Source: Planctomycetota bacterium
GTDB taxonomy: Bacteria > Planctomycetota > B15-G4 > SIAN01
Length of the DNA stretch: 64,000 bases
Assembly: GCA_031409275.1 (NCBI GenBank)
Contig: JANNXA010000016.1
Coordinates: 160,001 to 224,000 of the forward strand
Direction of reading: 5' to 3'
Shown: positions 459-43,990 of the stretch, in pieces
Layout: each line of letters begins with the position of its first letter
How positions within the stretch are numbered: the first letter of the stretch is position 1
Notes under the pieces: model-generated
Seen by the model: only the letters and a program-made list of their open reading frames with translations
Told to the model about the DNA's origin: nothing
The model's database searches: none
Program-made: the position numbers and the translations under genes

Positions 459-1670
459 ATGAAGATCGCCCTCCTCTCCTACGAGTACCCACCCGAGACC
501 GGCTTCGGCGGGATCGGCACGTACGCGTGGTACCAGGCGCGGGCGCTCGCGAAGCTCGGCCACGAGGTGCACGTCCTTTCGGGCGCCACCGAAGTCACGC
601 CGCTGCGCAGTTCCGCGCACGACGGTCTCACCGTCTTTCGCTATCGCGCCGGCGGCGGCTTCATGAAGGCGCTGAAGCGCCTCGACAAGCACAAGCTCTG
701 GTGGACGAAGAATCGCATCGAGAACGGCTGGTGCATGCACCTCGGATTGAAGGAGCTGCGCCGCCGCTTCAGCTACGACGTGGTCGAGATGCCGGAGTGC
801 GGCGGCGAGGGGCTGCTGCTCAACTGGCTGCAGCGCGCGAAGACCGTGATCAAGTTCCACTCGCCGGCGCAGCTGATCATGCCGACCTACGACGTGCGAA
901 AGGCCGACCACCTCGCGTGCTCGTTCGTCGAGAAGCTGGCGATTCGCGGGGCGGACGCGTTCACCTCCTGCAGCCAGTTCCTCGCCGATGAGGTGCGCAC
1001 GAAGATGGGCGTGCGGCGACCCATCAAGGTGGTCGCCAACGGCATCGACCTCGATCTCTTCGACGCCGAACAGCAGATCGACGCGCGCGCCAAGTTCGGG
1101 CTGCCCGCCGGCAAACCGGTCATCTTCTTCGCCGGCCGCATGGAGAAGCGCAAAGGGATCCATCTCTGCCCCGAGATCTGCGAGACGATCCTGAAGAAGC
1201 ACGACGTCGCCTTCGCCTTCGCCGGCAGCGACCTGTTCGGCTTCATGGAGAAGGAACTGCTGCCGCGGATCAAGGGCCAGACCTTGAAGGGCTCGGTCCA
1301 CTACCTCGGCAAGCTCACCTTGCAGGAGGTCGGCTCCTGCCTGCGCCAGAGCGACATCTACTTCATCCCCAGCCTCTGGGAGAACTGCCCGTACTCGTGC
1401 CTCGAGGCGATGGCGGCCGGCCGCGCCATCGTCGCCAGCGACGCGGGAGGATTGCCCGAGCTGATCCGCGACGGCGAGAACGGATTGATCGCGAAGAGCG
1501 GGGAGGCTGCCGGTTTCGCCAGCGCGATCGAGCGCCTCATCGAGGACGCGCCGCTGCGCGCACGTCTCGGAGCCGCGGCGCGCCGCACCGTCGAGGAGCG
1601 CTATACCGACGTCGGAATCGCGCAGCAGTCGCTCGACTGCTGGAAGCAGGCGCTGCAGCTGGGAGCTTGA
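459..1670 (+). CDS. GT4 family glycosyltransferase
   Basis: MKIALLSYEYPPETGFGGIGTY start; FAGRMEKRKG; PSLWENCPYSCLEAMAAG (EX7E motif). Start moved to ATG 459 within ORF 204..1670. Confidence 0.9.
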   Translation: MKIALLSYEYPPETGFGGIGTYAWYQARALAKLGHEVHVLSGATEVTPLRSSAHDGLTVFRYRAGGGFMKALKRLDKHKLWWTKNRIENGWCMHLGLKELRRRFSYDVVEMPECGGEGLLLNWLQRAKTVIKFHSPAQLIMPTYDVRKADHLACSFVEKLAIRGADAFTSCSQFLADEVRTKMGVRRPIKVVANGIDLDLFDAEQQIDARAKFGLPAGKPVIFFAGRMEKRKGIHLCPEICETILKKHDVAFAFAGSDLFGFMEKELLPRIKGQTLKGSVHYLGKLTLQEVGSCLRQSDIYFIPSLWENCPYSCLEAMAAGRAIVASDAGGLPELIRDGENGLIAKSGEAAGFASAIERLIEDAPLRARLGAAARRTVEERYTDVGIAQQSLDCWKQALQLGA

Positions 1671-1671
1671 G

Positions 1672-4600
1672 ATGGGCGTCCTGCACATCGAAGGCGAACC
1701 CGAGCGCGACCTGTCCCGTGAAGCCTACGACCTGACGCGCCGCCTCCTGCTCGAGCCGAAGGCGGTCTGCCACGCGCCCTTCGGTGCGCTCCACCTCGGC
1801 GACCAGCTGCGGCAGTGTCGCCACGGCGCCGCGGACCTCGGCGATCCGCGCAGGACCACGCTGGCCCAGGCGTTCTCTGGCGTGCCGGCGGACCAGCTGC
1901 GCGAACGATTCCAGCGCTACCTCGTGCGCCGCGACGAGTGCGCGCGCTGCGTCGGCGACTGGGAGGATGGTGCCGCGGCCGAGAGCCCGGCGCTGCGCGA
2001 ATACGACGATGCGCTGCCGCCGGTGAACGGGCTGCCCCCGCAGCTGCGCGCGTTGTCGATCGACGCGAGCGGCGAGCTGCCCGCGGCTCGGCTCGCCGAA
2101 GTGCGCGAGCTCATGCCGCAGCTCGACCATCTGACCCTGATCTGCACGACGCTCGAACGCGGCACGCGCGCCGCTTCGCTCGCCAGCGAGCTCGACTCCT
2201 TGCGCAGCCGCGGTCGACCCAGGCTGCGAATCATCGCGCGCGGCTTCGTGCCGGAAGCCGCCGCCATCCCGCCGGGCGCGAGCGAGGTCGAGGTCGACCT
2301 GCCACTCACGGCCCCTCCACTCGACGCGCCGCAGCAGGAACGGCTCGCCGACCTCGCCGACGATCTGCGCGAACGCAAGGCGTCTCTGTCCGTGCAGTGC
2401 GAGATCGGGTGCTCCACGTGGAGCGCGCTGCGCGGCTGGCTCAGCCGCTGCGGAGCGTGCGGCGCGGCGGCGGCGCCGCTGCTGGTTCCGCGCGGCACGG
2501 ACGACTCGCTCGCGGCGCTCGACCCCGACCTGCTCGCGGTCCTGCACGGGATCTTCTTCCGTTGGGGCGTCGAGAGCGGCATCGCCGCCGAGGCGCAGCA
2601 CGGTGAGCCTTCGCAACGCGCCTTGCTGAATCGGCTGCGCGAGTGGCAGCGCGCCAGCGCCAGCGCCGCGACCAGCGGCAACGCGTCGCTCGATCTCCCG
2701 GCGCCCGACTTCAGCGAAGAGGGAGAGGCGCGGCGGCTCCTGCAAGACCTCCTTCGCGCCTACCACCATCCGCAGATCGAGCGCTGGCTGCGGGCGCTGG
2801 TGCAGGCCGATGGTTTCGTGGGCGCCGCGCGCGAACGGTTGAGCTTGCGCCTGGTCACGCTCTGGCTCGCCAACGTTTTCGAGCGCCACGAGATGGCCTC
2901 GCTGCTGCGCGACATCTACCGCGATGCCGAGGCGGCGCTGACGCAGATCGCCGCCGATCGCGCCACGCTGGCGCAATCGCCGCTGGCGAGCTGGCACGAC
3001 AACTGGATCGCCGCACTCGCGCTCGAACGCCCGCCGCGCAGCGCCACACCGTTCCAGATCGCGCCGGCTGCCGCGCCGACCTCCCGGCACGCGCAAGTGA
3101 CCGTGATCATCCCCTCGTACAACCACGAGCACTTCATCGGCCAGGCGATCGACAGCGCGTTGGCGCAGAGCGGACCGGGCGTGCGCGTGCTGGTCGTCGA
3201 CGACGACTCGACGGACGCCACCGTCGCGGTGGCGCGCCAGCGACGCGACCCGCGACTGCTGGTGCGACGCAACTCGCGCAACCTCGGCCTCGGCGAGAGC
3301 CTGCTGCGCGCGCTGCGAATCGTGCGCACGCCGTTCGTGGCCATCCTCAACTCCGACGACTTCTTCCATCCCGAGCGCATCGAGAAGCTGCTGGGCGCGT
3401 TGAAGCAGTCGCCGCGCGCCACCGTCGCCGCCTCGCTGGTGGTGCCCGTCGACACGCAGGGGCGCACGCTGACGCTCGCCGACGCCTCGCCGATCTTCGA
3501 CGGCAAGCGCATCCACGATTGGCTCTCCTGGTGGAGCCACGCCGGCACGCCACCGACCGACGGCGACCTGCTCGGTCCGCTGTTCGAGCGCAACTGGCTG
3601 ATCACTTCGAGCAACCTGGTCTGTCGGCGCGACTTCCTTCTGCGCAACGCGCGACTCTGGCGCGACCTCGAGTACTGCGTCGATTGGCAGCTCTTCCTCG
3701 CCGCCGCCGCCGAGGGCGGCCTGCGGGTGGTCGCGGAGCCGCTGCTGGGCTACCGGCTGCACGCCAGCAACACCGTCTGGTTCGACACCGAACGCAGCTG
3801 GCGCTTCTACGTCGAGTCGCATCGCGTCGTCGCGCGCGCGCTCGAACAACGGCTGCGGACCGATCGATCGCCGCCGAAGGACCGTTTCGAAGCCCACCTC
3901 GAACTGGTCGCGCGCCATGTCGCCGCGAACCCCGACGCCGACTGGGCCGGGATCTGGCTCGGCCAGATGCTCGAACGGCTGAAGATCCCGTCGCGCGCAT
4001 TGCGACTCGGCAAGAGCCGCCCGCTGATCGAGGTCCTCGAACGGCTGCGGGAGCTCCGCCTGAACGCACGCGACGTCGCGGCGGCCGTCGGTGACCGGCT
4101 CGCATGGTTCCATCGCATGCGCGGCGAGGAGCCCTACCTGCGCTCGGAGCGCAGCAGGGCCGAGGCGCTCGCCTCCGAGTTGTCGCGTCTGCACGGCGAA
4201 CTGCACGGCACGCTGCTCGACCGCCGCAACGTCGAGAAGCTGTGGCACCAGGCCGAGCGCGAGCGCGACGCGGAGATCACCGGGAAGAGCGAGCTCTATC
4301 AGCGGTTCGACGCGCTGAACGGCGAAGTCGAACACGCAACGCGCGAGCGCGACGCGGTGAAGCAGGCGGCGGCGGCGGCGCGCGACGAAGCCGCGACGGC
4401 TGCCGCGACGGCCGCCGCTGCAGCCGCCGCTGCCGCCGCTGCAGCCGCCGCAGCGCTCGCTCGCGCGCGCGAGGAACAGGCACACGCGATCGCGCGGGAA
4501 CGTGCCGTTGCCGAGGATCGCTTCCTGGCCGAGCAGGCGAATGCCGCAGCCAGGAGCGTCGCACTCGAACAGCAGGCGCAGCGGGAACGTGGCGAACTCG

Positions 4601-6249
4601 AACAGCTAGCACAACGGGAGCGTCGCGAACTCGAACAGCGCGCGCGAAAGGAACGTCTCGAACTCGAGCAGCGCGCGCGACAGGAACTCGACGAACTCGA
4701 GCAGCGCGCGCGACAGGAGCGCGAGGAGTTCGAACGCAACGAGCAGGCGCTCGCCGCGAACCTCGCCCGACTCGAGGGCGAGCTCGCCCAGCAGAAGTCG
4801 CTCTCCCACCAGCGCACTGCCGAGCGCGACGCCCTGCTGCGCACTCCCGAGTACCGCTTCGGCCACCTCGCGCTCAACAAGCTGCCGCTGAAGCAGCCGC
4901 TGCGCTTCCTCGAGAAGAAGGCCTCCAAGGCGAGGGCGGTCTGGAACGGCAAGCGCCTCGCGCTCGAGCGCCGGAGCGGCAAGCCGCGCGTCTTCGCGAC
5001 CATCTGCTGGAACTTCCCGATCTACTCGCAGACCTTCGTCTACCAGGAGCTGCTGCAGCTCGAGAGGCGCGGGTTCGACGTGCGCGTCGTCTACAGCAAA
5101 CTCGATCCGAAGGACCGCCTGCATCAGCAGTTCGAGAAGCTCTGGGACCTGAAGCGGCCGATGCACCTCGACCGCGTGGTCCACGAGTCCGATTTCCGTC
5201 TCTTCAAGGCGCGCTTCCCGGACCGGGTCGAGCGCCTCACGCAGCGGCTGTGCGCCGCTTCGGGCCTCGCGCGCGAGCAGCTCGAGCAGCACGACAACTT
5301 CCTGCAGGGATTCACCTACGCGCGCCTCGCTGAGGCATGGGGCGCCGAGTACCTCCACTCCTACTTCTTCTACGATCGCTCGCTGATGTCGCTGATCGCG
5401 GGCGAGGTGCTCCAGCTGCCGCACGGCGTGTCGTGCTACGCCGATCACGTGATGAAGGACTACGAGCTGAAGGTGGTGCCGCTGCACCTCGAGACGTGCG
5501 ACGTCGTCGTCGCCACTTCGCATCGCATCAAGCGCGAACTGCTGGCGCTGGCGCCCGATACGCCCGAGTCGCGGATCCTGGTCAAGCCCAACGCGATCGA
5601 CTGCACCCGCTTCCCGGTGCTGCCACGACCCGAGCCGCACCCTGGCCAGCCGTTCCGCCTCGTGGTCACCAGCCGCATCGAACCGAAGAAGGGGCTGATC
5701 TACCTGGTCGAGGCGGTGCACCTGCTGCGCGGCGCGGGCATCGACGTCGAGGCGCACTTCGTCGGCGACGCGGATCACGGCGTGCCCGCGTCGGAGAACT
5801 GCAAGGCCGAGTTGTGCGCCCGGATCGAAGCGCTCGGCCTTTGGGGCAAGGTCCATCTCGAAGGACGCCAGCCCGAGCAGAAGGTGCGCCACTTCCTCTC
5901 GATCGCCCACCTCTTCGTGGCGCCGTTCATCGAGACCGAGAGCGGCGACAAGGACGGCATTCCGACCGCATTGATCGAGGCGCTCGCGACCGGCCTGCCG
6001 GCGGTGGTCACCGATTCCGGCTCGATCCTCGAGGTGGTCGACGACCGCGTCGATGCGCGCGTCGTGCCGCAACGCGACCCGCGCGCGCTCGCCATCGCGA
6101 TCCGCGAACTGCTGCAGGACCCGTCCGGCCGTCGCTTCATGGCGATCAAGGCGGCGCAGAAGGCGCGCGAGAAGTTCGACGTCTCCGTGTGCGAACCGTG
6201 GTTCCACGAGCGCGTGCGCGCGGCGCTGGCCGCGCGACGCAAGGCATGA
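1672..6249 (+). CDS. Multidomain glycosyltransferase: SPASM-like/degenerate radical SAM region + GT2 + coiled coil + GT4
   Basis: N-terminal CHAPF..C..LG..TL...CARC; GT2 VIIPSYNH..VVDDDSTD..LNSDD from ~3097; poly-Ala and 11-aa repeat coiled coil; GT4 SRIEPKKG..DGIPTALIEA from ~4987. Confidence 0.85.
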   Translation: MGVLHIEGEPERDLSREAYDLTRRLLLEPKAVCHAPFGALHLGDQLRQCRHGAADLGDPRRTTLAQAFSGVPADQLRERFQRYLVRRDECARCVGDWEDGAAAESPALREYDDALPPVNGLPPQLRALSIDASGELPAARLAEVRELMPQLDHLTLICTTLERGTRAASLASELDSLRSRGRPRLRIIARGFVPEAAAIPPGASEVEVDLPLTAPPLDAPQQERLADLADDLRERKASLSVQCEIGCSTWSALRGWLSRCGACGAAAAPLLVPRGTDDSLAALDPDLLAVLHGIFFRWGVESGIAAEAQHGEPSQRALLNRLREWQRASASAATSGNASLDLPAPDFSEEGEARRLLQDLLRAYHHPQIERWLRALVQADGFVGAARERLSLRLVTLWLANVFERHEMASLLRDIYRDAEAALTQIAADRATLAQSPLASWHDNWIAALALERPPRSATPFQIAPAAAPTSRHAQVTVIIPSYNHEHFIGQAIDSALAQSGPGVRVLVVDDDSTDATVAVARQRRDPRLLVRRNSRNLGLGESLLRALRIVRTPFVAILNSDDFFHPERIEKLLGALKQSPRATVAASLVVPVDTQGRTLTLADASPIFDGKRIHDWLSWWSHAGTPPTDGDLLGPLFERNWLITSSNLVCRRDFLLRNARLWRDLEYCVDWQLFLAAAAEGGLRVVAEPLLGYRLHASNTVWFDTERSWRFYVESHRVVARALEQRLRTDRSPPKDRFEAHLELVARHVAANPDADWAGIWLGQMLERLKIPSRALRLGKSRPLIEVLERLRELRLNARDVAAAVGDRLAWFHRMRGEEPYLRSERSRAEALASELSRLHGELHGTLLDRRNVEKLWHQAERERDAEITGKSELYQRFDALNGEVEHATRERDAVKQAAAAARDEAATAAATAAAAAAAAAAAAAAALARAREEQAHAIARERAVAEDRFLAEQANAAARSVALEQQAQRERGELEQLAQRERRELEQRARKERLELEQRARQELDELEQRARQEREEFERNEQALAANLARLEGELAQQKSLSHQRTAERDALLRTPEYRFGHLALNKLPLKQPLRFLEKKASKARAVWNGKRLALERRSGKPRVFATICWNFPIYSQTFVYQELLQLERRGFDVRVVYSKLDPKDRLHQQFEKLWDLKRPMHLDRVVHESDFRLFKARFPDRVERLTQRLCAASGLAREQLEQHDNFLQGFTYARLAEAWGAEYLHSYFFYDRSLMSLIAGEVLQLPHGVSCYADHVMKDYELKVVPLHLETCDVVVATSHRIKRELLALAPDTPESRILVKPNAIDCTRFPVLPRPEPHPGQPFRLVVTSRIEPKKGLIYLVEAVHLLRGAGIDVEAHFVGDADHGVPASENCKAELCARIEALGLWGKVHLEGRQPEQKVRHFLSIAHLFVAPFIETESGDKDGIPTALIEALATGLPAVVTDSGSILEVVDDRVDARVVPQRDPRALAIAIRELLQDPSGRRFMAIKAAQKAREKFDVSVCEPWFHERVRAALAARRKA
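4561..4740 (+). repeat. 33-bp coding tandem repeat (~5.5 units) encoding hendecad ELEQRARQE-type coiled coil
   Basis: ACTCGA(A/G)CAG recurs at 4563, 4596, 4629, 4662 and 4695; preceded by a GCC/GCG-rich poly-Ala tract at ~4390-4460. Confidence 0.85.
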
Positions 6250-6262
6250 GCGCGGGCGTGGC

Positions 6263-7153
6263 ATGGCGCGCCTGACCTTCTGCGTCCCGACCTGGAACGG
6301 CGCGCCGTTCATCGAGCGGACGCTCGCTGCCCTGCTGGCAGTCGACGGCGCCGCGCTCGAGGTGATCGTCGGCGACGATGCGTCCGACGACGGCAGCGCC
6401 GATCTGGCGCAGCGCTTCGCGCGCGAGCGCCGGGACGCTCGCGTCCGCGTCCACCCCTTCCGCGAGCGGCTCGGTCTGGCCGGCAACTGGAACCGGACGT
6501 TGCGCCTCGCGCGCGGCGATTACGTCTGCCTGTTCGGGCAGGACGACCTCTGCCACCCGGACTTCGCGCAGCGTCTGGTCGGCCGCCTCGAACGCCACCG
6601 CGACTGCGCGCTCGCCTTCGGCCGCCGCGACTTCGTGATCGCCGACGAGCCAAGCCGCGCCGCGATGGGCGACTTCTTCGAGCGGCGCTACCCCGAGATG
6701 ATGCGGCCCTTCGAGGCGCACGTGCAGGCGCTCGGCGAGGTGATTCCGGCGCGCGTGATGCTGGACGAAGCGTTGCGCTTCCGCTTCGAGATCAACCTGA
6801 TCGGCGAGCCGAGCTTCGCGGTGTTCCGGCGCGACCATCCGGCGGTCGCCGTCGGCTTCGACGAGCAGATGCAGCAGATGATCGACTGGGAGTTCTTCAC
6901 GCGCTTCTTCGCCGAGGCACCGGTCGCTCGCTGCCATGACACGATCGGCAGCTACCACGTCCACGCGCGCGGTTCGTCGCTCGCGAACGCGAAGCTGTCG
7001 CGCCACTACCGCGAGTTCGACCACCTGCTGGGCGTCGTGCTGGAGCGGTTCGCTGCGACGCTGACCGCGATCGATCGCGGCGCGCTCGAGGAACGGCGCA
7101 ACGAGGCGCGCCGCCTCGCGCTCGAGCATGCCGCGCAGGAGGCTCGCTCATGA
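6263..7153 (+). CDS. GT2 family glycosyltransferase
   Basis: MARLTFCVPTWNG..VGDDASDD..GNWN..FGQDD..IGEPS..DWEF. Confidence 0.9.
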   Translation: MARLTFCVPTWNGAPFIERTLAALLAVDGAALEVIVGDDASDDGSADLAQRFARERRDARVRVHPFRERLGLAGNWNRTLRLARGDYVCLFGQDDLCHPDFAQRLVGRLERHRDCALAFGRRDFVIADEPSRAAMGDFFERRYPEMMRPFEAHVQALGEVIPARVMLDEALRFRFEINLIGEPSFAVFRRDHPAVAVGFDEQMQQMIDWEFFTRFFAEAPVARCHDTIGSYHVHARGSSLANAKLSRHYREFDHLLGVVLERFAATLTAIDRGALEERRNEARRLALEHAAQEARS

Positions 7154-9027
7154 GCGGCGCGCGCGGGCCGGCCGTGGCGTGCGCGCTCCTCGTCGCGCTG
7201 CTGGTCGGCGCAGCCACCGCCTTGCGCATCTCGATCACCCACGCGCAGCCCGGCTGGGATCGCACCTCGCCGGTCGGCCTGCTGAAGAGCGATCCGGCGC
7301 TCCTCTATTGGTTCACCGAACGCCACGCTGCAGATGCCAGCGCATCGAACGACGACCTCGCCGCGACCACCTCGGTGCAGTGGCCCGACCCCATCGATGC
7401 GCGCGTCGAGTTCCCGCAACTGCAGATGCAACTCGCGGCGATGACGTGGCGGTGGTTTGGCGCCGGGATGCCGCTGCACGAGTGGTGCGTGCTGCTCTTC
7501 TCGCTGCTCGCCGCGACCGCGCTTTGGGGCGTCTTCGGCCTCGCGCACGAGCTGACCGGGCGTCGCGACCTGGCACTGGCCGCGACCGCCGCCGCCTTCC
7601 TGCTGCCGGCGACGTGGCGCACCGCGAGCTTCGTGCTGCTGGGAGAGGACGTCGCGCTGCCGGCCCTGGCGTTCCACTTCTGGCTCGCAGCGCGCGCCGC
7701 CCGATTGCGTACGCCGGCCGCCTTCCTGCTGGCGGGGCTGCCGTTGGCCATCGCCATGGCGGCCTGGCACGCCACCGGGTTCTTCGTCGCCATCGAAGCC
7801 GGCGCCTTCTTCCTTTGGTACCTGCGCAGCGGAGCCAACCCCTTCTCGGTGGCGCGCGCGTGGCTCGTGCTGCTGCCCTTCGCGCTTGCCTGCGCAGTCG
7901 AGCCGATGCTTCGTGGCAAGCTGCAACTCCTCTCGCTGCCGATGCAGATCGCGCTGGCGCTGCTGCTGATGGCGGCGATCGAGTCGCGGCGAAAGCTGGC
8001 CTTTGCAACACGGATCGGCGCCGCGCTCGCGCTGGTGGCGGCGGGCGCCGGTCTCGCCTGGCTCGCGGCGCGCCTGATGGGCGGCGGCATCGGCGACTAC
8101 TCGCACGTGTTCCGGCTGCTGCTCTGCAAGCTGCGCTACCTCGGCGAGTTCCCCGCCGATCCCAACGAACTGCCCTTCGAGGTCCGCATCCTCTGGCAGG
8201 GTCCCTTCGACACCACACAACTCGGCGCGCTGCTGAAGAACCTCTCGGCTCCGCTCTTCGTCGGCCTGCTCGGCGTCGCGTTCGCGCTGCCGGCATGGCG
8301 ACGTGGCACCACGGTCGAGGCGGTCGAGCGCGCGCGGGCCGTGCTGGCGCCCGCCGTGCTGGTGGCGCTGCTGGCGTCGTGGCTCATCCAGCGCACGCTC
8401 GTGCTTTCGGCACTGCTCTTCCCGGTCGCCGCCGTAATCGCGATCGAGACGCTCGCCTCGTGCGCTGCGGTCGCGAATTGCCGCTTCGTGCGGGGGGGTC
8501 TCGTGGCGCTGCTGCTGCTGGTGCCGGCGGCGCAATTCCCCGAGTTCGTCCGTTTCGTCGAGCAGAAGAACCGCTGGTACGAGCCGCGCCACAGCGCCGA
8601 GATCCGCGCGGCGGTGGAAGTGATCTCGAAGCTCGTGCCGCCGGGCGAGGCGGTGGCCAGCGACGAGATCAACTCGACCGCGATGCTGGCCCACACCGGC
8701 CACCCGATCCTGGTGCAGCCGAAGTACGAGTCGACGGCGGCGCGCGAACGGCTCGAGGAGTACCGCACCGCAGCGACGCGCGGCACGCCGGCCGAGCTCG
8801 CCGACTTCCTGCGCCGCCACCGATGCCGCTATCTGCTATTCGACTGGTTCCAGCTGTTCGCGACGCGCTACCAGGCGGGGCTGCGTTACGACAGCAACGA
8901 GATGGACGGCGACAGCGCGCTCGCGATCACCTACCAGACGCCAGCGGCGCTTCCCGGGTTCAAGCTGCTCTGGCGCAGCGGCGGGCCGCGCGACGGAATG
9001 CGTCTCTACGTGCTCGAATCACCCTGA
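7150..9027 (+). CDS. GT-C fold multi-TM glycosyltransferase, DPY19/STT3-superfamily-like
   Basis: About 11-13 hydrophobic segments; KSDPALLYW after TM1, [25 protein letters not shown]-terminal soluble [14 protein letters not shown] overlap with the upstream GT2. Confidence 0.75.
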
Positions 9028-9512
9028 CGGAAGCGGTCGAGCACTTTCTGGTTCTGCGCGAGGAACGCCTCGGCCCAGTGGTAGCGATCGAGCAACCCGG
9101 CGGTGTCGCGGCGCAGCATGGTGAATGCGGCGTAGATCGCCTCGATCGTGGCGAGCCCGTCATCGGGATCGGTGAGCTTCTTCGACATGCGCGGATAGGC
9201 GCTGACCAGCGGCGGCAGCGAGCGCACCGGCAGCTCGGCGTAGAGGCGTTCCATTCGCGGCGCCAGGCGCCACGTCGAGTCGATCACCAGCAGCCCCGCC
9301 TCCGCGTCCGCGACCGAGAGCTGCGGCCCGCCGATTCCCAACCGGACGTAGGCGTCGAGCGGCTCGCTGCCGCGCTGCGGATAGGGCCAGAAGCAGAACT
9401 CCCGATTCGCGCGGAGCGGTTCGACCGAGCACTTGCGGCGATTCTCGCGCGGATGGACCACGATGATGGTGGGAGGGTGGTTCACGCGGCGCGGCGCGTT
9501 CTCGACGTTCAT
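9006..9512 (-). CDS. TDD-superfamily (Tsr3/DTW-like) putative RNA aminocarboxypropyltransferase
   Basis: [18 protein letters not shown] (DxTW), [20 protein letters not shown]. Confidence 0.75.
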
Positions 9513-10147: not shown

Positions 10148-10266
10148 TCCCCGCTCCGCACACCACCAAACCCGCCGCCACGGCGCGCCACCGTATCATT
10201 CGCGCCTCGTTCCGCCGCTCCCGCGCGATGCCCGCGCCGCGGCCACTCAGTCGTGAGGAGGAAGTG

Positions 10267-11286
10267 ATGTTCGCAGCGATGGTGTTGGCGGCGTCGGCGG
10301 CTCTCGCCGGCGGCGACGACAAGGTTCCCGACTTCGGTGCCGTCGAGTGGTGGAACTCGATGCCGTTGACGACCGGACGCCTGAAGGGGCGCGCCATCTT
10401 CGTCGAGTCGTTCCGCACCTGGTGAGGCCCTTGCACCGGACAGCTCCCCCACTTGACGGCGCTTCACGAGAAGTTCCGCAAGAAGGGCGTGCTGGTCGTC
10501 GGCGTGTCCGACGAGACGCATGAACTCATCGACGAGTACGTGAAGAAGCACGCGATCGCCTTCCCGATCGCGCGGATCGACGAGAAGGGCGGCTTCGAGG
10601 CGGCGATCGGCGTCCAGGGCTTCCCGAGCGCGGCGTTGATCGGCGCGGACGGCAAGCTGATCTGGACCGGCCATCCGGCCGAGGTCGACGCCATGCTCGA
10701 CAAGGCGGCGAAGGCCTCGAAGATGACGCCGCTCCTGCCGGCGGCGTGCAGCGCCGCGGAGAAGCTGCTGAACGACGGCAAGAGCGGCCTCGCCTGGGCC
10801 GAGCTCGAAAAGGTCGCCACCGCCGGCACGTTGCAGGGCGACGACCTGAAGTCGGTGACCGACCTGATCGCCTACTTCGAGAAGGACGCCACGGCGCTCT
10901 GGAAGGAGGCCGAGGCGGCCGTCACCGCCAAGGACTGGATGAAGGCGGCGAGCGTTTGCGAGCGCCTGGTCCCGTACGCCGGCAAGGAGCCGGGTGATCT
11001 GGGCAAGGCGAAGCTCGCGGAGCTGCGAGCCGACCCGGCGCTGGTGAAGGAGATCGACGGCGCCAAACAGAACGCCACCGGAGCCGAGTTCGAGAAGGAG
11101 CTCGAGTTCAAGGAGGCGCAGAAGATCTACAAGCAGGTGGTCGCCAAGTTCGCCGGCAGCGAAGCGGCGAAGCAGGCGCAGAAGCGGCTCGACGTGATCA
11201 AGACGGACGGGCTGCTGAACATGGACAAGAACTGCGAGCTGTGCCGCGGGGGCAACCGCCCGTGCTCGCGACACGCGAAGGGCTGA
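10267..11286 (+). CDS. Exported TlpA/thioredoxin-like selenoprotein (UxxC) with helical C-terminal domain
   Basis: ORFs 10228..10425 and 10453..11286 share a frame; TGA at 10423-10425 gives FRTW-U-GPC; later VGVS and QGFPSAALIGADGKL; RBS GAGGAGG before ATG 10267. Confidence 0.85.
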
Positions 11287-11634: not shown

Positions 11635-12963
11635 TCAGCTCCGGTAGAGCGATTCGAACTGCTCGGCAATGGTCGCGGCGCTCGGGACCTCCTGCCGCGA
11701 GACCCGGAGGGCCTGCCAGAGACCCGGCTCGTTCACGAAGCGGGCGAGCGCGGCGAGCAGGTCGGCGGCGTCTCCGGGTCGAAACGCGAGGCCGTTGCCG
11801 CGCGCGGCGAGCAGCTCGTCCATGCCACCGTGACCCGCGACGATCACGGGCAATCTCGCGAGCGCGGCCTCATCGAGGGTGATCGGCGCGTTCTCGTACC
11901 AGCGCGACGGGACCACCAGCACGTCGATCGAGCCGAGCACCGCGGCCAGACGCGCGCGCTCGAAGCTGCCGTGGAACGTGATCGCCGAGTGGTGGAAGCG
12001 TGATTCGAGTCGCCGCGCGTAGGCACCGCCATCCCACGGCGACGTGCCATGGATCGCCAGCGTCGCCCTCGCCGGCCCACCGCCAGCGCCATCGATCAAC
12101 CGGCGGAACGCTTCGAGCAGCAGATCGGCGCCCTTCGAAGGCAGCAGCGATCCGACGAAGCCGAAACGCAGCGGTTTGCCAGGTTCCGCGCGCGGCGCGA
12201 GCGCCGCCGCCACTTCCGAAGCGACGCCGTTCGCGATGACGACTCCGCGCTCCATGTGCAGGCCGTGGCGGCGATGTTCGTCGAGCACGAAGCGCGACGG
12301 GGCGGTGATCACGTCCGCACGGCCGAGCTGCGCCAGCATCTCGGCGCTGCGCCGTCGAATGGCGATCGTGCCGAGGTTCTCGGCGAGGTAGCGCGGCAGA
12401 CCGGCGAGCGCCGCGAACGGCTCGCGCGCGAAGCGCTGCAACGCATAGCGCGCCCGCTTCTTGCCGATGCAGCGCGCGCAGCGCTGCGGTTCGATCTCGG
12501 CGCAAAGGTGGCCATCGGGCGTGAAGCGCTGGCCGCGCGCGCAGAGGTGCCAGAAGTCGTGCAGCGTGACGACGACGCGGGCACCGGCCTTTCGAGCCGC
12601 CTCGATCAGGTCGATCGAGAGTCCGAGCGTGTGGTGGAAGTGAACGACGTCGACCCCCGCCGCGAGCTCGCGCTCGAACGCGGCGTGAACGCCCGCATCG
12701 AGATAGGTGCCGCGCAAGGAGGTGGCGCGCTCCGGCAACGTCTTCAGCCGCGTCACCGCGACGCCTTCCACCCGCTCCCGCAGGGTGGCCAGCAACGGCA
12801 GGTCGGGCCAGCCGGTGCGCACGAAGGCACGCACGTCGTGGCCCCGTTCCAACAGCGCGCGCGCCAGCCAGTGGGCAGAGAGCTCGGCGCCGGCGTGCTC
12901 GCGCGGCGGGTACCCGTGCGCGACGACGAGGATGCGCAGCGGCGCGTTCAAGCTCGACTTCAT
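11635..12963 (-). CDS. GT4 family glycosyltransferase with Cys cluster
   Basis: RILVVAHGYPP..GAE; TLHDFWHLC..C..CARC; FVGSLLPSKG; PSRWYENAPITLDEA. Confidence 0.9.
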   Translation of the reverse strand: MKSSLNAPLRILVVAHGYPPREHAGAELSAHWLARALLERGHDVRAFVRTGWPDLPLLATLRERVEGVAVTRLKTLPERATSLRGTYLDAGVHAAFERELAAGVDVVHFHHTLGLSIDLIEAARKAGARVVVTLHDFWHLCARGQRFTPDGHLCAEIEPQRCARCIGKKRARYALQRFAREPFAALAGLPRYLAENLGTIAIRRRSAEMLAQLGRADVITAPSRFVLDEHRRHGLHMERGVVIANGVASEVAAALAPRAEPGKPLRFGFVGSLLPSKGADLLLEAFRRLIDGAGGGPARATLAIHGTSPWDGGAYARRLESRFHHSAITFHGSFERARLAAVLGSIDVLVVPSRWYENAPITLDEAALARLPVIVAGHGGMDELLAARGNGLAFRPGDAADLLAALARFVNEPGLWQALRVSRQEVPSAATIAEQFESLYRS

Positions 12964-39811: not shown

Positions 39812-40789
39812 ATGAGCGTCCGCAAACGGCTCTTGTCGGTCGTCGTGCCCTGCTTCAACGAGGAAGCGGTGCTGGCGCTCACGCACCGGCGGTTGCTCGA
39901 AAGCCTCGGCAACCAGGCGGAGTTCGACCTCGAGATCGTCTACGTCGACGACGGCAGCCGCGACCGCACCGAGCAGATCTTGTTCGATCTCGCCGACCAG
40001 GATGCGCGCGTCACGGTCGTCTCCTTCACGCGCAACTTCGGCCACCAACCGGCGGTCTCGGCGGGAATGCGGCAGGCGACCGGCGACGCCGTCGCGGTGA
40101 TCGACGCCGACCTGCAGGATCCGCCGGAAGTGATCCTGCGGCTAGTCGACCAGTGGCGCGAGGGATTCGACGTCGTCAACGCCGTGCGCCAGCACCGGAA
40201 GGAGGGTTTCGCCAAGCGCTTCGCGTACGCGATCTTCTATCGCGTGTACCAACGGCTCGCGAGCATCGACGTGCCGCTCGACAGCGGCGACTTCGCGCTG
40301 ATGGATCGGCGCGTCGTCGATGTCATGAACGCGCTGCCGGAGAAGAATCGCTTCGTGCGAGGGCTGCGCAGCTGGTCGGGCTTCCGCCAGACCAGCGTCG
40401 TCTACGAACGCCAATCGCGCGCCGCCGGCGAGACGAAGTACAGCTTCCGCAAGCTCGTCGGTCTCGCCTTCGACGGCATCGTCAACTTCTCGACCGCGCC
40501 GTTGAGCCTGATCTTCGGGCTCGGCGCAGTGACCGCGGCGCTGGCGCTGGTGGCCGGCGCGCTCTACCTCTTCTGTCGCATCGTCGAGATCCCGATCTTC
40601 GGCTACACCCCCGGCCAGGCGCCCGGCTTCACGACGCTGATCCTCGTGATCCTCTTCTTCAGCGGCGTGCAGCTCATCTCGATCGGGATCCTCGGCGAGT
40701 ACCTCGGCCGCATCTATCAGGAGACCAAGATGCGACCGACCTATGTCGTCAAGGAAGTGCACCGACGACGCGACACGAGCGAGACGTAG
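39812..40789 (+). CDS. GT2 polyprenol-phosphate glycosyltransferase (GtrB/DPM1-like)
   Basis: SVVVPCFNEE; DDGSRD; RNFGHQ; IDADLQDPP; GDFALMDR; two C-terminal TMs; GEYLGRIY. Confidence 0.92.
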   Translation: MSVRKRLLSVVVPCFNEEAVLALTHRRLLESLGNQAEFDLEIVYVDDGSRDRTEQILFDLADQDARVTVVSFTRNFGHQPAVSAGMRQATGDAVAVIDADLQDPPEVILRLVDQWREGFDVVNAVRQHRKEGFAKRFAYAIFYRVYQRLASIDVPLDSGDFALMDRRVVDVMNALPEKNRFVRGLRSWSGFRQTSVVYERQSRAAGETKYSFRKLVGLAFDGIVNFSTAPLSLIFGLGAVTAALALVAGALYLFCRIVEIPIFGYTPGQAPGFTTLILVILFFSGVQLISIGILGEYLGRIYQETKMRPTYVVKEVHRRRDTSET

Positions 40790-40987: not shown

Positions 40988-42337
40988 TCATGGGTCGAGC
41001 AGTCCGCGGGAGAGCAACTCCTTCGCGATCGCCGCTCCGACCACCTCGTTGCCGAACACGGTCCAATGGCCGCTCCACACCTCGTGGAAGCGCTTCGAGC
41101 CGAGCGTCCGGAAGGCGTGGCGCACGTTGATCAACTCGACCTGACGAGCGTTCGCCCATTCGACGACGCAGCGTTCGTGCGCGTCCGGGAACGCGTCGAA
41201 CGAGCCCGCCTTGGCGGGAAAGTAGGCGACGGCGAAGCGGCTCCCTTGACCACGGCTCGAGGCGAGCGCTCGATCCAGCAGTCGCCGCGCCACTTCCCAC
41301 TTGGGCGAATGGGTCGTCAGCTGGTGGAAATCGTCGATGGCGCGTGCGATCAGTCCGGCTGCAGCGCTGGTCGGAAGCGAAAGCTCGAGGTGCTCGCCGA
41401 GCCGTTCGACCTCGATGCCGCGCGTTGCGCCGGCGCGCGGTGGTTCCGGCGCAAACAGCCTCAGGCCATCGCAGATCCCGTCGAGGGAGTCGTCCGCCCC
41501 ACCGAGCTCGGCCAGCTCGAAATGGGGCTTGGCGAAGTCGCGAAATGAGAGCGCGTTGCGATCGAGGTCGGGACCGAACAGGCCGAGCAGGACGAGGTCG
41601 GGTTCGTGTTGCAGCCCGCGCTGCTCGAGGCGCAACACTTGCTGATCGAGCCCATAGCCCATCACGCCGAAATTGAGCGCACGCACGGTGGCGTCCGGTG
41701 CGCGCCGCGCGAGAGCGGCGGCGAGCTCGCGCTCCATCACCGGGATCCACGCCTCCTCGTCGCGCACGCCTTCGCCGAACGTGAAGGAGTCGCCGATCGC
41801 GACGATGCGTCGCTCGTGCGCGGGCTGCGTCGCGGGGAGCTCGATGCCGCGCGCGCCGGCGGAGTTGATGGAGATGCCGTCGCTTCGATGTCCCGGTACC
41901 GGTTCCCAACCAAGCGCGTCATCGAGGCGATGCACCTGCAATTCACCCGGCACCGCCATCGCGAAACGAGCGCGCCACCAGTCATCCTCCGGCAGCAGCA
42001 GCTCGTAGCGCTGCGCGGGGTCGATCAGCAACACACGGGCGATCCCCTCCAGCGAAAGCCCCCCCACCATCAACATCACGGACGCCACCAGCGATCCGCG
42101 CGCAAGCCGGCGATCTCCGCGGCGACGCCACACGACGACGCTGGCACGGAACAGGCGAGCCGCTGCGACGGCCAGCAGCAGGGCCGCGATCCACGCCAGC
42201 AGCTGCGCGCGTCGACCCGGCAGCGGGCCGGCGGCCAGCACGAATCGGCCAAGCAACGGTGGCGTCGCGAAGACGGCCAGCGCGAGCAGAACGCTCGCGA
42301 CGATGGCCAGCAGGAAGGCGATGAAGCGCGCGAGCAT
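40988..42337 (-). CDS. Membrane-anchored SGNH/GDSL family protein
   Basis: Three N-terminal TMs; INSAGARG; AIGDSFTFG; NFGVMGYG; GHWTVFGN. Confidence 0.85.
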   Translation of the reverse strand: MLARFIAFLLAIVASVLLALAVFATPPLLGRFVLAAGPLPGRRAQLLAWIAALLLAVAAARLFRASVVVWRRRGDRRLARGSLVASVMLMVGGLSLEGIARVLLIDPAQRYELLLPEDDWWRARFAMAVPGELQVHRLDDALGWEPVPGHRSDGISINSAGARGIELPATQPAHERRIVAIGDSFTFGEGVRDEEAWIPVMERELAAALARRAPDATVRALNFGVMGYGLDQQVLRLEQRGLQHEPDLVLLGLFGPDLDRNALSFRDFAKPHFELAELGGADDSLDGICDGLRLFAPEPPRAGATRGIEVERLGEHLELSLPTSAAAGLIARAIDDFHQLTTHSPKWEVARRLLDRALASSRGQGSRFAVAYFPAKAGSFDAFPDAHERCVVEWANARQVELINVRHAFRTLGSKRFHEVWSGHWTVFGNEVVGAAIAKELLSRGLLDP

Positions 42338-42415
42338 CGGCCTTTTCCTATCCCGGGGCGATCGACAGTCAATCCTCGCGATTGCACGCCAAGCCACCTG
42401 AGGCACAATCCTCCC

Positions 42416-43990
42416 ATGATCGAGCTTCGAGACGACGCCAGCCGCGGCACGGACTGGCACCTGCGGATCGCTCCGCTCCTTTTCGCCGCGGTTGCGCTCG
42501 TCGCGCTCGCGCTCTTCCTCTGGTGCACGACCGCGCGCCTGCCATGGGGCTTCGAGCTCTCCAAGATGGAGGGCGGCTTCGTCGACCACGCGCGGCGTGC
42601 GGCGAGCGGCCTGCCGATCCACGCGGCCCCGACTTCGGAGTTCGCCTCGTTCCTCTACATGCCGCTCGCCCACCACGTGGCGGGTTGGTTCGTGCGCGCC
42701 GGCCTCGATGGCTACGCGGCGACTCGACTGCTCTCGATCGCCTCGCTGACGCTGGCGACCGCGCTCTCGACCTGGCTCTGCGCACGCGCGTTGCGACAGC
42801 AGTGGATGGCGTCGCTGGTGCCCGTTCTTGTGATCGCACGCTATTTCGACGTCGAGTGCTTCTACGACCAGGCGCGCCCCGACAACCTGATGTCGCTCTT
42901 CCTGGCGCTCGCCACGATCGCGCTGGCGCAGCCGCGCAGCGCAGCGGCCGTCGCGCTCTTCGTCGTCTCGGGGACGCTCGCCTTCTTCACCAAGCAGTCG
43001 TCGCTGGTCTTCCTGGCCGGCCTGCTCGGTTGGCACCTCTTCCTGCGTCCGCAGGTCGCGCTGATGGCGGGCGCGCTGCTCGCCGCGGTGGCGGCGCCGC
43101 TCTACTTCGTCCTCGACGGGCGCACCGGCGGCTGGCTCTCGAACTATGTGTGGAACATCCCGGCCACCCACCATTTCGACCAACAGGGCTTCATCGAGCT
43201 GGCGCGCGACGAGCTGCTCGGCGGCTTCCTCGTGCCAGCGCTGGTGATCGCGGGCGCGGCGATCGTGCTCGCGCGTCGGCTGCTCGCGCGCTGGCGCACG
43301 GGCCACTTCCGGTTCGAGCTGCCGACGGCGCCGGACGACCGCGTGCGCGAACTTGCGACGCACGCCCTCTTCTCGGGTGCGCTCGGCGGTCTGGCCTTCT
43401 CGCTGGCGAGCTCGACGCAGGTGCTGGCGGTGAAGAACGTCTGGGTCTCGTGCGCGGTGGCGAGCGCGCCGTTCCTGCCGATCGCGATCGAGCGGGCCAT
43501 CGCGGCGCTGGCGCCGGCGCGGAAGACGGCTGGCTCGCAGGCAGCCTGGCTCGCGCTGACGGCGTGCGTCGCGCTCGGCTTCACCGATCCGCGTCCCTTC
43601 CGGCCAACCGAGGCCGACGCGCAGGAGTGGCGCGCGCTGCACGCCGAACTCGCGAAGTACGGCCCGCGCGAGCGCACCTGGATCACCCTTCACGCGGCGA
43701 GCTACGGCGGGGTTCCCGAGGAACCCTACCACCTCCACTTCGGCGCGCTCTCCGACTTGATGGGCGGCTACTACGGCGACCCGACCGGCGTCGAGCTGCC
43801 GCCCGACCTCGTCGCGAAGGTCGCGGCGCGTTGGTACGCGGCGATCGTCATCGCCGACTGGGACCCCCGCATCCGCGCCGTGATCGGCGCGAGCTACGAG
43901 CCGGCGCCGGGCGGGCGCGCGTTTCGGCTCCCTTCCTTCAGCGGCCATCCATCGGGCAAGTCGGTGATCTGGGTCCCCAAGCGCGGCTAA
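42416..43990 (+). CDS. GT-C (ArnT/PMT-like) membrane glycosyltransferase
   Basis: KMEG after TM1; YMPL; RLLS; ARPD; FFTKQ; many TMs. Confidence 0.72.
   Translation: MIELRDDASRGTDWHLRIAPLLFAAVALVALALFLWCTTARLPWGFELSKMEGGFVDHARRAASGLPIHAAPTSEFASFLYMPLAHHVAGWFVRAGLDGYAATRLLSIASLTLATALSTWLCARALRQQWMASLVPVLVIARYFDVECFYDQARPDNLMSLFLALATIALAQPRSAAAVALFVVSGTLAFFTKQSSLVFLAGLLGWHLFLRPQVALMAGALLAAVAAPLYFVLDGRTGGWLSNYVWNIPATHHFDQQGFIELARDELLGGFLVPALVIAGAAIVLARRLLARWRTGHFRFELPTAPDDRVRELATHALFSGALGGLAFSLASSTQVLAVKNVWVSCAVASAPFLPIAIERAIAALAPARKTAGSQAAWLALTACVALGFTDPRPFRPTEADAQEWRALHAELAKYGPRERTWITLHAASYGGVPEEPYHLHFGALSDLMGGYYGDPTGVELPPDLVAKVAARWYAAIVIADWDPRIRAVIGASYEPAPGGRAFRLPSFSGHPSGKSVIWVPKRG

Follow-up and report, generated by a model that had tools for sequence, protein, structure and literature searches.

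The DPY19 enzymes (C. elegans DPY-19 and human DPY19L1-4; PF10034; PDB 7ZLG, 7ZLH and 7ZLI) have the same type of membrane fold as STT3, with a luminal dome, and tryptophan C-mannosylation is, to our knowledge, described only from animals and some protists (metazoans and alveolates). A second group of described proteins, WbbB, WbdD and ORF6 of K. pneumoniae O7, comprises coiled-coil polymerases and terminators for ABC-dependent glycans; in the accessible part of PMC11231755, an extended coiled coil is a marker of ABC-dependent glycan assembly or chain-length control. Proteins comparable to both stand side by side in a 64,000-nucleotide stretch from a Planctomycetota bacterium (the window, G000:C16:160001-224000; genome of 5.6 Mb, 93% complete), where four glycosyltransferase (GT) genes at 459..9027 encode a family 4 enzyme (GT4), a GT fusion, a family 2 enzyme (GT2) and a membrane enzyme of the C class (GT-C). 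A first-pass annotation had read the four as one pathway, in which the cytoplasmic enzymes assemble a lipid-linked glycan that the GT-C transfers to an envelope acceptor. The explanation preferred here, with some hesitation, is that the block holds two functional units, and that the GT-C may move one polyprenyl-phosphate-linked sugar to exported proteins, most likely in C-glycosidic linkage to tryptophan.

The GT-C enzyme and the DPY19 family

Taken alone, the GT-C gives a Pfam Dpy19 match (E 1.4e-5, 23.9 bits) that lies under the cut-off of 27.2, and a single-sequence search of solved structures returns spurious matches only, so that a profile is required. Besides the query, 61 homologs were found, and a profile was built from 57 of these; the clusters that it gathers number 618 at E<=1e-30, rising to 1418 when the threshold is relaxed to E<=1e-3. 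Against solved structures this profile matches C. elegans DPY19 best (E 2.3e-16), STT3 chains scoring 1.5e-3 or weaker, 13 orders of magnitude behind. Across the family members, Pfam Dpy19 matches 41/57 and STT3 0/57, and the paralog in the same genome passes the Dpy19 cut-off. The DPY19-like nature of the enzyme, as first annotated, is thereby borne out, and by sequence its closest family is DPY19 rather than STT3. The predicted structure (pLDDT 95) shows the STT3/DPY19-type membrane fold with its dome; the top Foldseek matches are DPY19 structures (TM 0.80-0.81), compared with 0.64-0.75 for STT3 and 0.51-0.59 for PglB, and superposition on DPY19 covers 592/625 residues at a root-mean-square deviation (rmsd) of 3.4-3.5 A with 13-14% structural identity. 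Features that set the protein apart from described DPY19 enzymes include its bacterial origin, its sub-threshold Pfam score and an Asp in place of Glu71. With the oligosaccharyltransferase (OST) proteins STT3, AglB and PglB it has in common the fold (Z 30.5, 27.9 and 21.8, respectively), the catalytic acid and the arginines, but it possesses neither WWDYG nor the DxE metal motif.

The bacterial family extends beyond this locus. An Atlas search with the homolog P0041 returns bacterial Dpy19-labelled clusters mostly from Planctomycetota, Verrucomicrobiota and Lentisphaerota. A second paralog in the query genome (L083, G000:C42:20973-22922) is 42% identical, contains the exact Rx6LRE motif of DPY19, has pntAB on one side and a kinase-like gene on the other, and may be a better assay candidate than the linked GT-C. 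In a second bacterial DPY19-like subfamily (P0175-P0205), the proteins end in TPRs and the catalytic position is occupied by Glu in 20/20 members; the subfamily scores with Pfam Dpy19 up to E 1e-29, and one member is labelled Candidatus Erginobacter. An alignment search with this subfamily, swamped by TPR repeats, returned no recognisable eukaryotic DPY19, and a metagenome scan with one member gave a single, TPR-only locus.

Active-site residues

The HMMER alignment pairs DPY19 residues E220, W262, H375, K383, R471 and L474 with E166, W206, H319, K327, R415 and V418 of the GT-C, and the Pro-x-Tyr-Glu loop that binds tryptophan is recovered as P524, Y526 and E527 (P576, Y578 and E579 in DPY19). 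In the family, this loop has its proline, its aromatic residue and its glutamate each in 57/57 members, and all 11 residues chosen for comparison are kept in 94/96 family rows of at least 500 aa. E579 is essential in DPY19 according to the accessible part of PMC8433626. The pairing of the catalytic acid E71 with D48, likewise an acid in the first loop, lies in a sub-threshold stretch of the alignment; the portion of PMC10154233 at hand reports that the E71D exchange keeps about 80% of DPY19 activity. R211 corresponds to R157 by an identical R-x8-E spacing, although HMMER, at a gap, shifts the two against each other by one position.

The OST motifs WWDYG and Rx6DxE each occur in 0/57 members, and a role as N-oligosaccharyltransferase was rejected on this ground, while the DPY19 form Rx6[LIVM]RE is found in 16/57. 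The position of the OST metal ligand (DNE) reads D-E/F-x-N-S in the alignment and offers no such ligand. The absence of this ligand and of WWDYG points to a monophosphate-linked monosaccharide as the donor and not to an assembled lipid-linked glycan, contrary to the transfer first proposed for this enzyme. We infer a metal-independent GT-C that uses a single sugar on a monophosphate-linked carrier, with the indole-binding loop retained and the pocket for the tryptophan at +3 altered.

Residues 165 and 506 vary within the family: G165 and E506 occur throughout the 27-row clade of the query, and mostly R and F elsewhere, possibly marking a specificity subtype.

Linkage of the GT-C to the other glycosyltransferases

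Among 79 related loci, drawn from the best 80 of 100 matches, a GT2 gene immediately precedes the GT-C in three, all of them 66-74% identical to the query, and the count is 2/64 when loci with at least 3 kb upstream are considered; at the remaining GT-C loci the neighbours are varied. The GT-C was found in 9/301 genomes of the phylum, mainly in families f1 and f7. Within f7 it is found in 36/61 genomes and the N-terminal part of the fusion in 0/61, although the same fusion query matched 7/42 genomes of its own order. The cassette of GT4, fusion and GT2 in turn is present without the GT-C in two sister genera. In G322, of another genus, the divergent GT4, the GT4, the fusion and the GT2 are followed by unrelated genes and the GT-C is absent there, the sole DPY19-like gene of that genome having the kinase/pntA context of the second paralog described above. 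G321 (86% complete) has the GT4 genes and the fusion and then a nuclease gene; neither a GT2 nor a GT-C was found there. In G323, which belongs to the genus of the query, the contig terminates within the GT2.

In the GT-C tree, the query falls in a 27-row clade (SH-aLRT 100), and the linked copies are confined to a single 13-row subclade (support 81). The sister subclade includes L004 and L005 (54-58% identical), which are unlinked and carry the same G165/E506 variant, and in whose genomes the fusion finds only GT4-domain matches of 27-28%. Linkage to the cassette is thus confined and is not tied to the active-site change. Where it exists, unrelated neighbours are kept too: in L003, 13/15 genes have their best match in this region, and a fourteenth, a GT4, also corresponds.

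The linkage of the GT-C to the cassette is therefore real but confined to one lineage, and each unit occurs without the other. Recurring linkage, the check set beforehand for the one-pathway proposal, largely fails; that proposal retains a linkage kept across one genus but not one that recurs in independent lineages. The four-gene block looks like a local juxtaposition.

At six loci of one clade (L024, L027, L031, L036, L037 and L067), the gene immediately before the DPY19-like one encodes a member of another, uncharacterised membrane protein family that seems to be GT-C-like.

The fusion protein and the cytoplasmic cassette

The fusion runs from a four-cysteine SPASM-like start (aa 33-93) through a degenerate radical-SAM-like barrel (about aa 121-338), a GT2 module (aa 477-708; Pfam match aa 477-592) and a spacer (about aa 781-1100) to a GT4 (Pfam match aa 1120-1496). 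The cysteines C33, C49, C90 and C93 are invariant, in a region where the model has pLDDT <60, and their arrangement may fit the SPASM/Twitch pattern. Downstream of them, the predicted barrel superposes on PqqE and BlsE over 190 residues, with Z 9.6 and an rmsd of about 4.1, and Foldseek with the N-terminus gives weak barrel matches only. The SPASM label given at first may suit the four cysteines but receives no Pfam match, and the barrel has no CxxxCxxC. This radical SAM motif is absent from 13/13 fusion sequences, for which reason an active radical SAM domain was rejected; the module is perhaps iron-sulfur-binding or a scaffold relic. Among the genomes searched, a barrel and four-cysteine module fused to glycosyltransferases (1672-2700 here) is found only in family f1.

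In 12 homologs the fusion ranges from 1465 to 1804 aa, with the C-terminal GT4 part steady near 412 aa. The spacer is rich in A, E, R and L and varies in length, a composition that suggests a coiled coil. GT modules separated by a long, variable and likely coiled-coil spacer recall WbbB, WbdD and O7 ORF6, as covered by the accessible text of PMC11231755; the likeness is limited to GT folds and architecture, with no terminator activity identified, and the fusion differs in starting with a degenerate radical-SAM-like domain. The glycans of those systems are ABC-dependent, and this genome has Wzm/Wzt-like genes, with the transporter unlinked to the block (C49:93214-95548); the divergent GT4 at the window edge finds its closest paralogs in the GT4 genes adjoining that locus. 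Genome-wide, three initiating transferases and five Wzy_C/ligase-like genes are present. The first GT4 of the block has orthologs of 64-91% identity in six genomes of the family, and the divergent GT4 accompanies the cassette in G321-G325 and G218. The GT2 following the fusion has weak best matches to polysaccharide GT2s and not to polyprenyl-phosphate sugar synthases; it was rejected as the donor synthase since its matches differ from AglJ/ArnC/PgfS-like GT2s. The predicted role of the three-gene cassette is a part in the synthesis of a surface polysaccharide.

Proposed activity and alternative explanations

If the two units are separate, the donor of the GT-C would be a polyprenyl-phosphate hexose that a GT2 synthase, one among several in the genome that are unlinked to the block, produces and that is then flipped outward. 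Several short GT2s, eight in one scan and the one in the window at 39812-40789 in another, have AglJ, ArnC, PpgS or PgfS as their best families, all below the cut-off; the genome also has 15 PMT_2 matches. R157, R415 and W206 would hold the phosphate, D48 would be the acid/base, and P524/Y526 together with W349/F353 would hold the acceptor ring at the periplasmic face. The +3 pocket is unlike that of DPY19, so the sequon would probably not be a strict WxxW. The cassette, with its variable-length coiled coil, may feed an ABC-exported glycan, perhaps via the Wzm/Wzt locus of the genome. The position of the GT-C behind it would date from the ancestor of a single lineage, ordinary synteny having preserved it since. 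Tryptophan C-glycosylation by the GT-C is in itself quite conceivable, and is proposed tentatively.

Several observations weigh against this proposal, and some of them favour a separate GT-C that uses a polyprenyl-phosphate monosaccharide on an acceptor other than the tryptophan carbon, whether by protein O- or N-linkage or on a lipid or glycan, an alternative that is doubtful but deserves serious consideration. Two residues critical to DPY19 activity have been lost. K473 of DPY19, whose loss removes 90-100% of activity according to the available part of PMC10154233, is L417 in the GT-C and varies across the family, so that the Trp(+3) pocket is not kept, its remainder being preserved as R157 (R211) and V418 (L474). 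F264 is A208, H577 is not kept, and R219 is G165 in the subclade of the query. Y395 and F401 were paired with W349 and F353 by eye only, HMMER having aligned that loop otherwise, and E71, R211, E220 and R471 are also present in STT3 (PMC6801728, accessible part), so that they are no pointer to tryptophan chemistry. By VIA-align the model ties between STT3 (Z 30.3-30.5) and DPY19 (Z 29.7-30.0), which leaves the DPY19 assignment to rest on sequence, and the tree was built by a quick method from bacterial rows only, with no eukaryotic DPY19. No WxxW signal stands out: in predicted exported proteins the motif is 1.27-fold over shuffles, compared with 1.21 for W-x3-W, near the GT-C gene it is not enriched, and no acceptor class emerged. 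A Pfam TSP_1 search for thrombospondin-type substrates was empty, as were its controls, and is uninformative. A more general envelope decoration is also suggested by recurring sulfatase-like neighbours (13/142 GT-C neighbour slots, against 53/4048 genes in the query genome) and by the GT-C-like neighbours at six loci, but these counts are not independent of kinship. Against a non-tryptophan acceptor stand the nearly invariant indole-binding P-x-Y-E loop and the absence of WWDYG, which binds the hydroxyl in OST.

The transfer en bloc of an oligosaccharide built by the GT4, the fusion and the GT2, as the first-pass annotation proposed, draws on the tight spacing of the genes with their 4-bp overlap and on their conservation, which likewise speaks against separate units: the order is kept in G324 and G218, both of the query's genus, G325 retains the GT2-GT-C junction, and five further GT-Cs of the 13-row subclade apparently co-occur with fusion homologs, an indirect support for linkage. 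Furthermore, no STT3/PglB match is found in the genome, which would leave the OST role vacant. This model is nevertheless improbable, given the cassettes without GT-C in G322 and G321, the unlinked L004 and L005 that share the active-site variant in genomes with no fusion ortholog, the absent OST metal ligand and the lack of a linked flippase or initiating transferase. Hardly less unlikely is a lineage-specific recruitment, whereby a duplicated GT-C would add single-sugar side branches to the exported polysaccharide of the cassette. Enzymes of the GtrII or ArnT type perform an analogous single-sugar addition after export, the second paralog on C42 could keep the ancestral job, and the clade of the linked copy is distinct and well supported, with residues of its own; yet these residues are older than the linkage, and unrelated neighbours are just as syntenic. 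The separate-unit explanation with a tryptophan acceptor is therefore preferred, at the tentative strength given above.

Significance

No published description of a bacterial DPY19 was found in the literature searched, in which subscription papers are thinly covered, including the accessible parts of PMC13738210 and PMC4973528; Pfam already labels many bacterial family members Dpy19. That uncultured Planctomycetota and other bacteria bearing this family C-glycosylate tryptophan in exported proteins, by a DPY19-type enzyme with a sequon other than WxxW, is a possibility put forward cautiously. If true, C-mannosylation would extend beyond metazoans and alveolates, and a common origin of eukaryotic DPY19 and the bacterial family would be conceivable. 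Because the DPY19 active site is conserved in so varied a set of bacterial proteins, the supposed restriction can be tested directly in reporter and peptide assays already in use; the family also bears on the origin of DPY19 and could supply bacterial enzymes for C-glycosylation. Recognition of the block as a local juxtaposition also keeps the GT-C from being mis-assigned as an oligosaccharyltransferase; the four-gene operon itself is less important.

Gene layout and neighbouring genes

The features of the block and the two further GT4 genes are collected in Table 1; the gene order, orientation and spacing first noted agree with the coordinates, and both outlying GT4 genes exist by Pfam and gene calls. 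The four genes are separated by 1 bp and 13 bp, the last two overlapping by 4 bp (ATGA), and co-transcription is plausible from this spacing; a promoter and terminator scan gave counts at chance level. GC content at third codon positions is 0.89-0.92 in the four genes and 0.56-0.74 in two shadow frames.

Table 1. Glycosyltransferase genes in and around the four-gene block (positions in the window)
Feature	Position	Strand	Basis and remarks
Divergent GT4 gene, 5' end, 451 aa	1..183	-	Start at window 183; continues left of the window (C16:158828-160183)
GT4 glycosyltransferase, soluble, 403 aa	459..1670	+	Pfam PF00534 (E 1e-34), PF13439
GT fusion gene, 1525 aa	1672..6249	+	Pfam GT2 and GT4, structure comparison, alignment
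GT2 glycosyltransferase, 296 aa	6263..7153	+	Pfam GT2
DPY19-like GT-C membrane glycosyltransferase, 625 aa	7150..9027	+	Pfam Dpy19 (weak), family profile, fold
Further GT4	11635..12963	-	Pfam; related to the GT4s of the genome's Wzm/Wzt locus

Synteny of the further GT4 was observed only within the genus. As stated at first, no Wzx, Wzy, Wzm, Wzt or sugar-nucleotide genes appear in the window (none at E<=1e-6 among 36 window and left-flank proteins, nor among 10 in a separate scan, small open reading frames being unscanned). The flippase or initiating transferase that might have been expected left of the window was not met there either, none of the nine left-flank proteins scanned matching such a family. 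That flank encodes a general ABC-2 exporter pair and, at L001:12213-18820, immediately left of the divergent GT4, a sulfatase-like protein whose gene stands between those of two paralogous BNR/sortilin-like proteins.

On the other side, a TSR3/DTW-like gene (9006-9512, minus strand) converges on the 3' end of the GT-C gene with a 22-bp overlap. Beyond it lies a thioredoxin-like gene (10228-11286, plus strand) with an in-frame TGA within W-*-G-P-C, kept in L003; the genome encodes tRNA-Sec and SelA, and it is therefore likely that the product is a selenoprotein of the UxxC type whose C-terminal part is helical. Farther along, the GT2 at 39812-40789 (plus strand) is PgfS/GtrB-like (E 1.6e-87, below the cut-off), a possible polyprenyl-phosphate sugar synthase; behind it, at about 41606-43990, a membrane protein without annotation is encoded.

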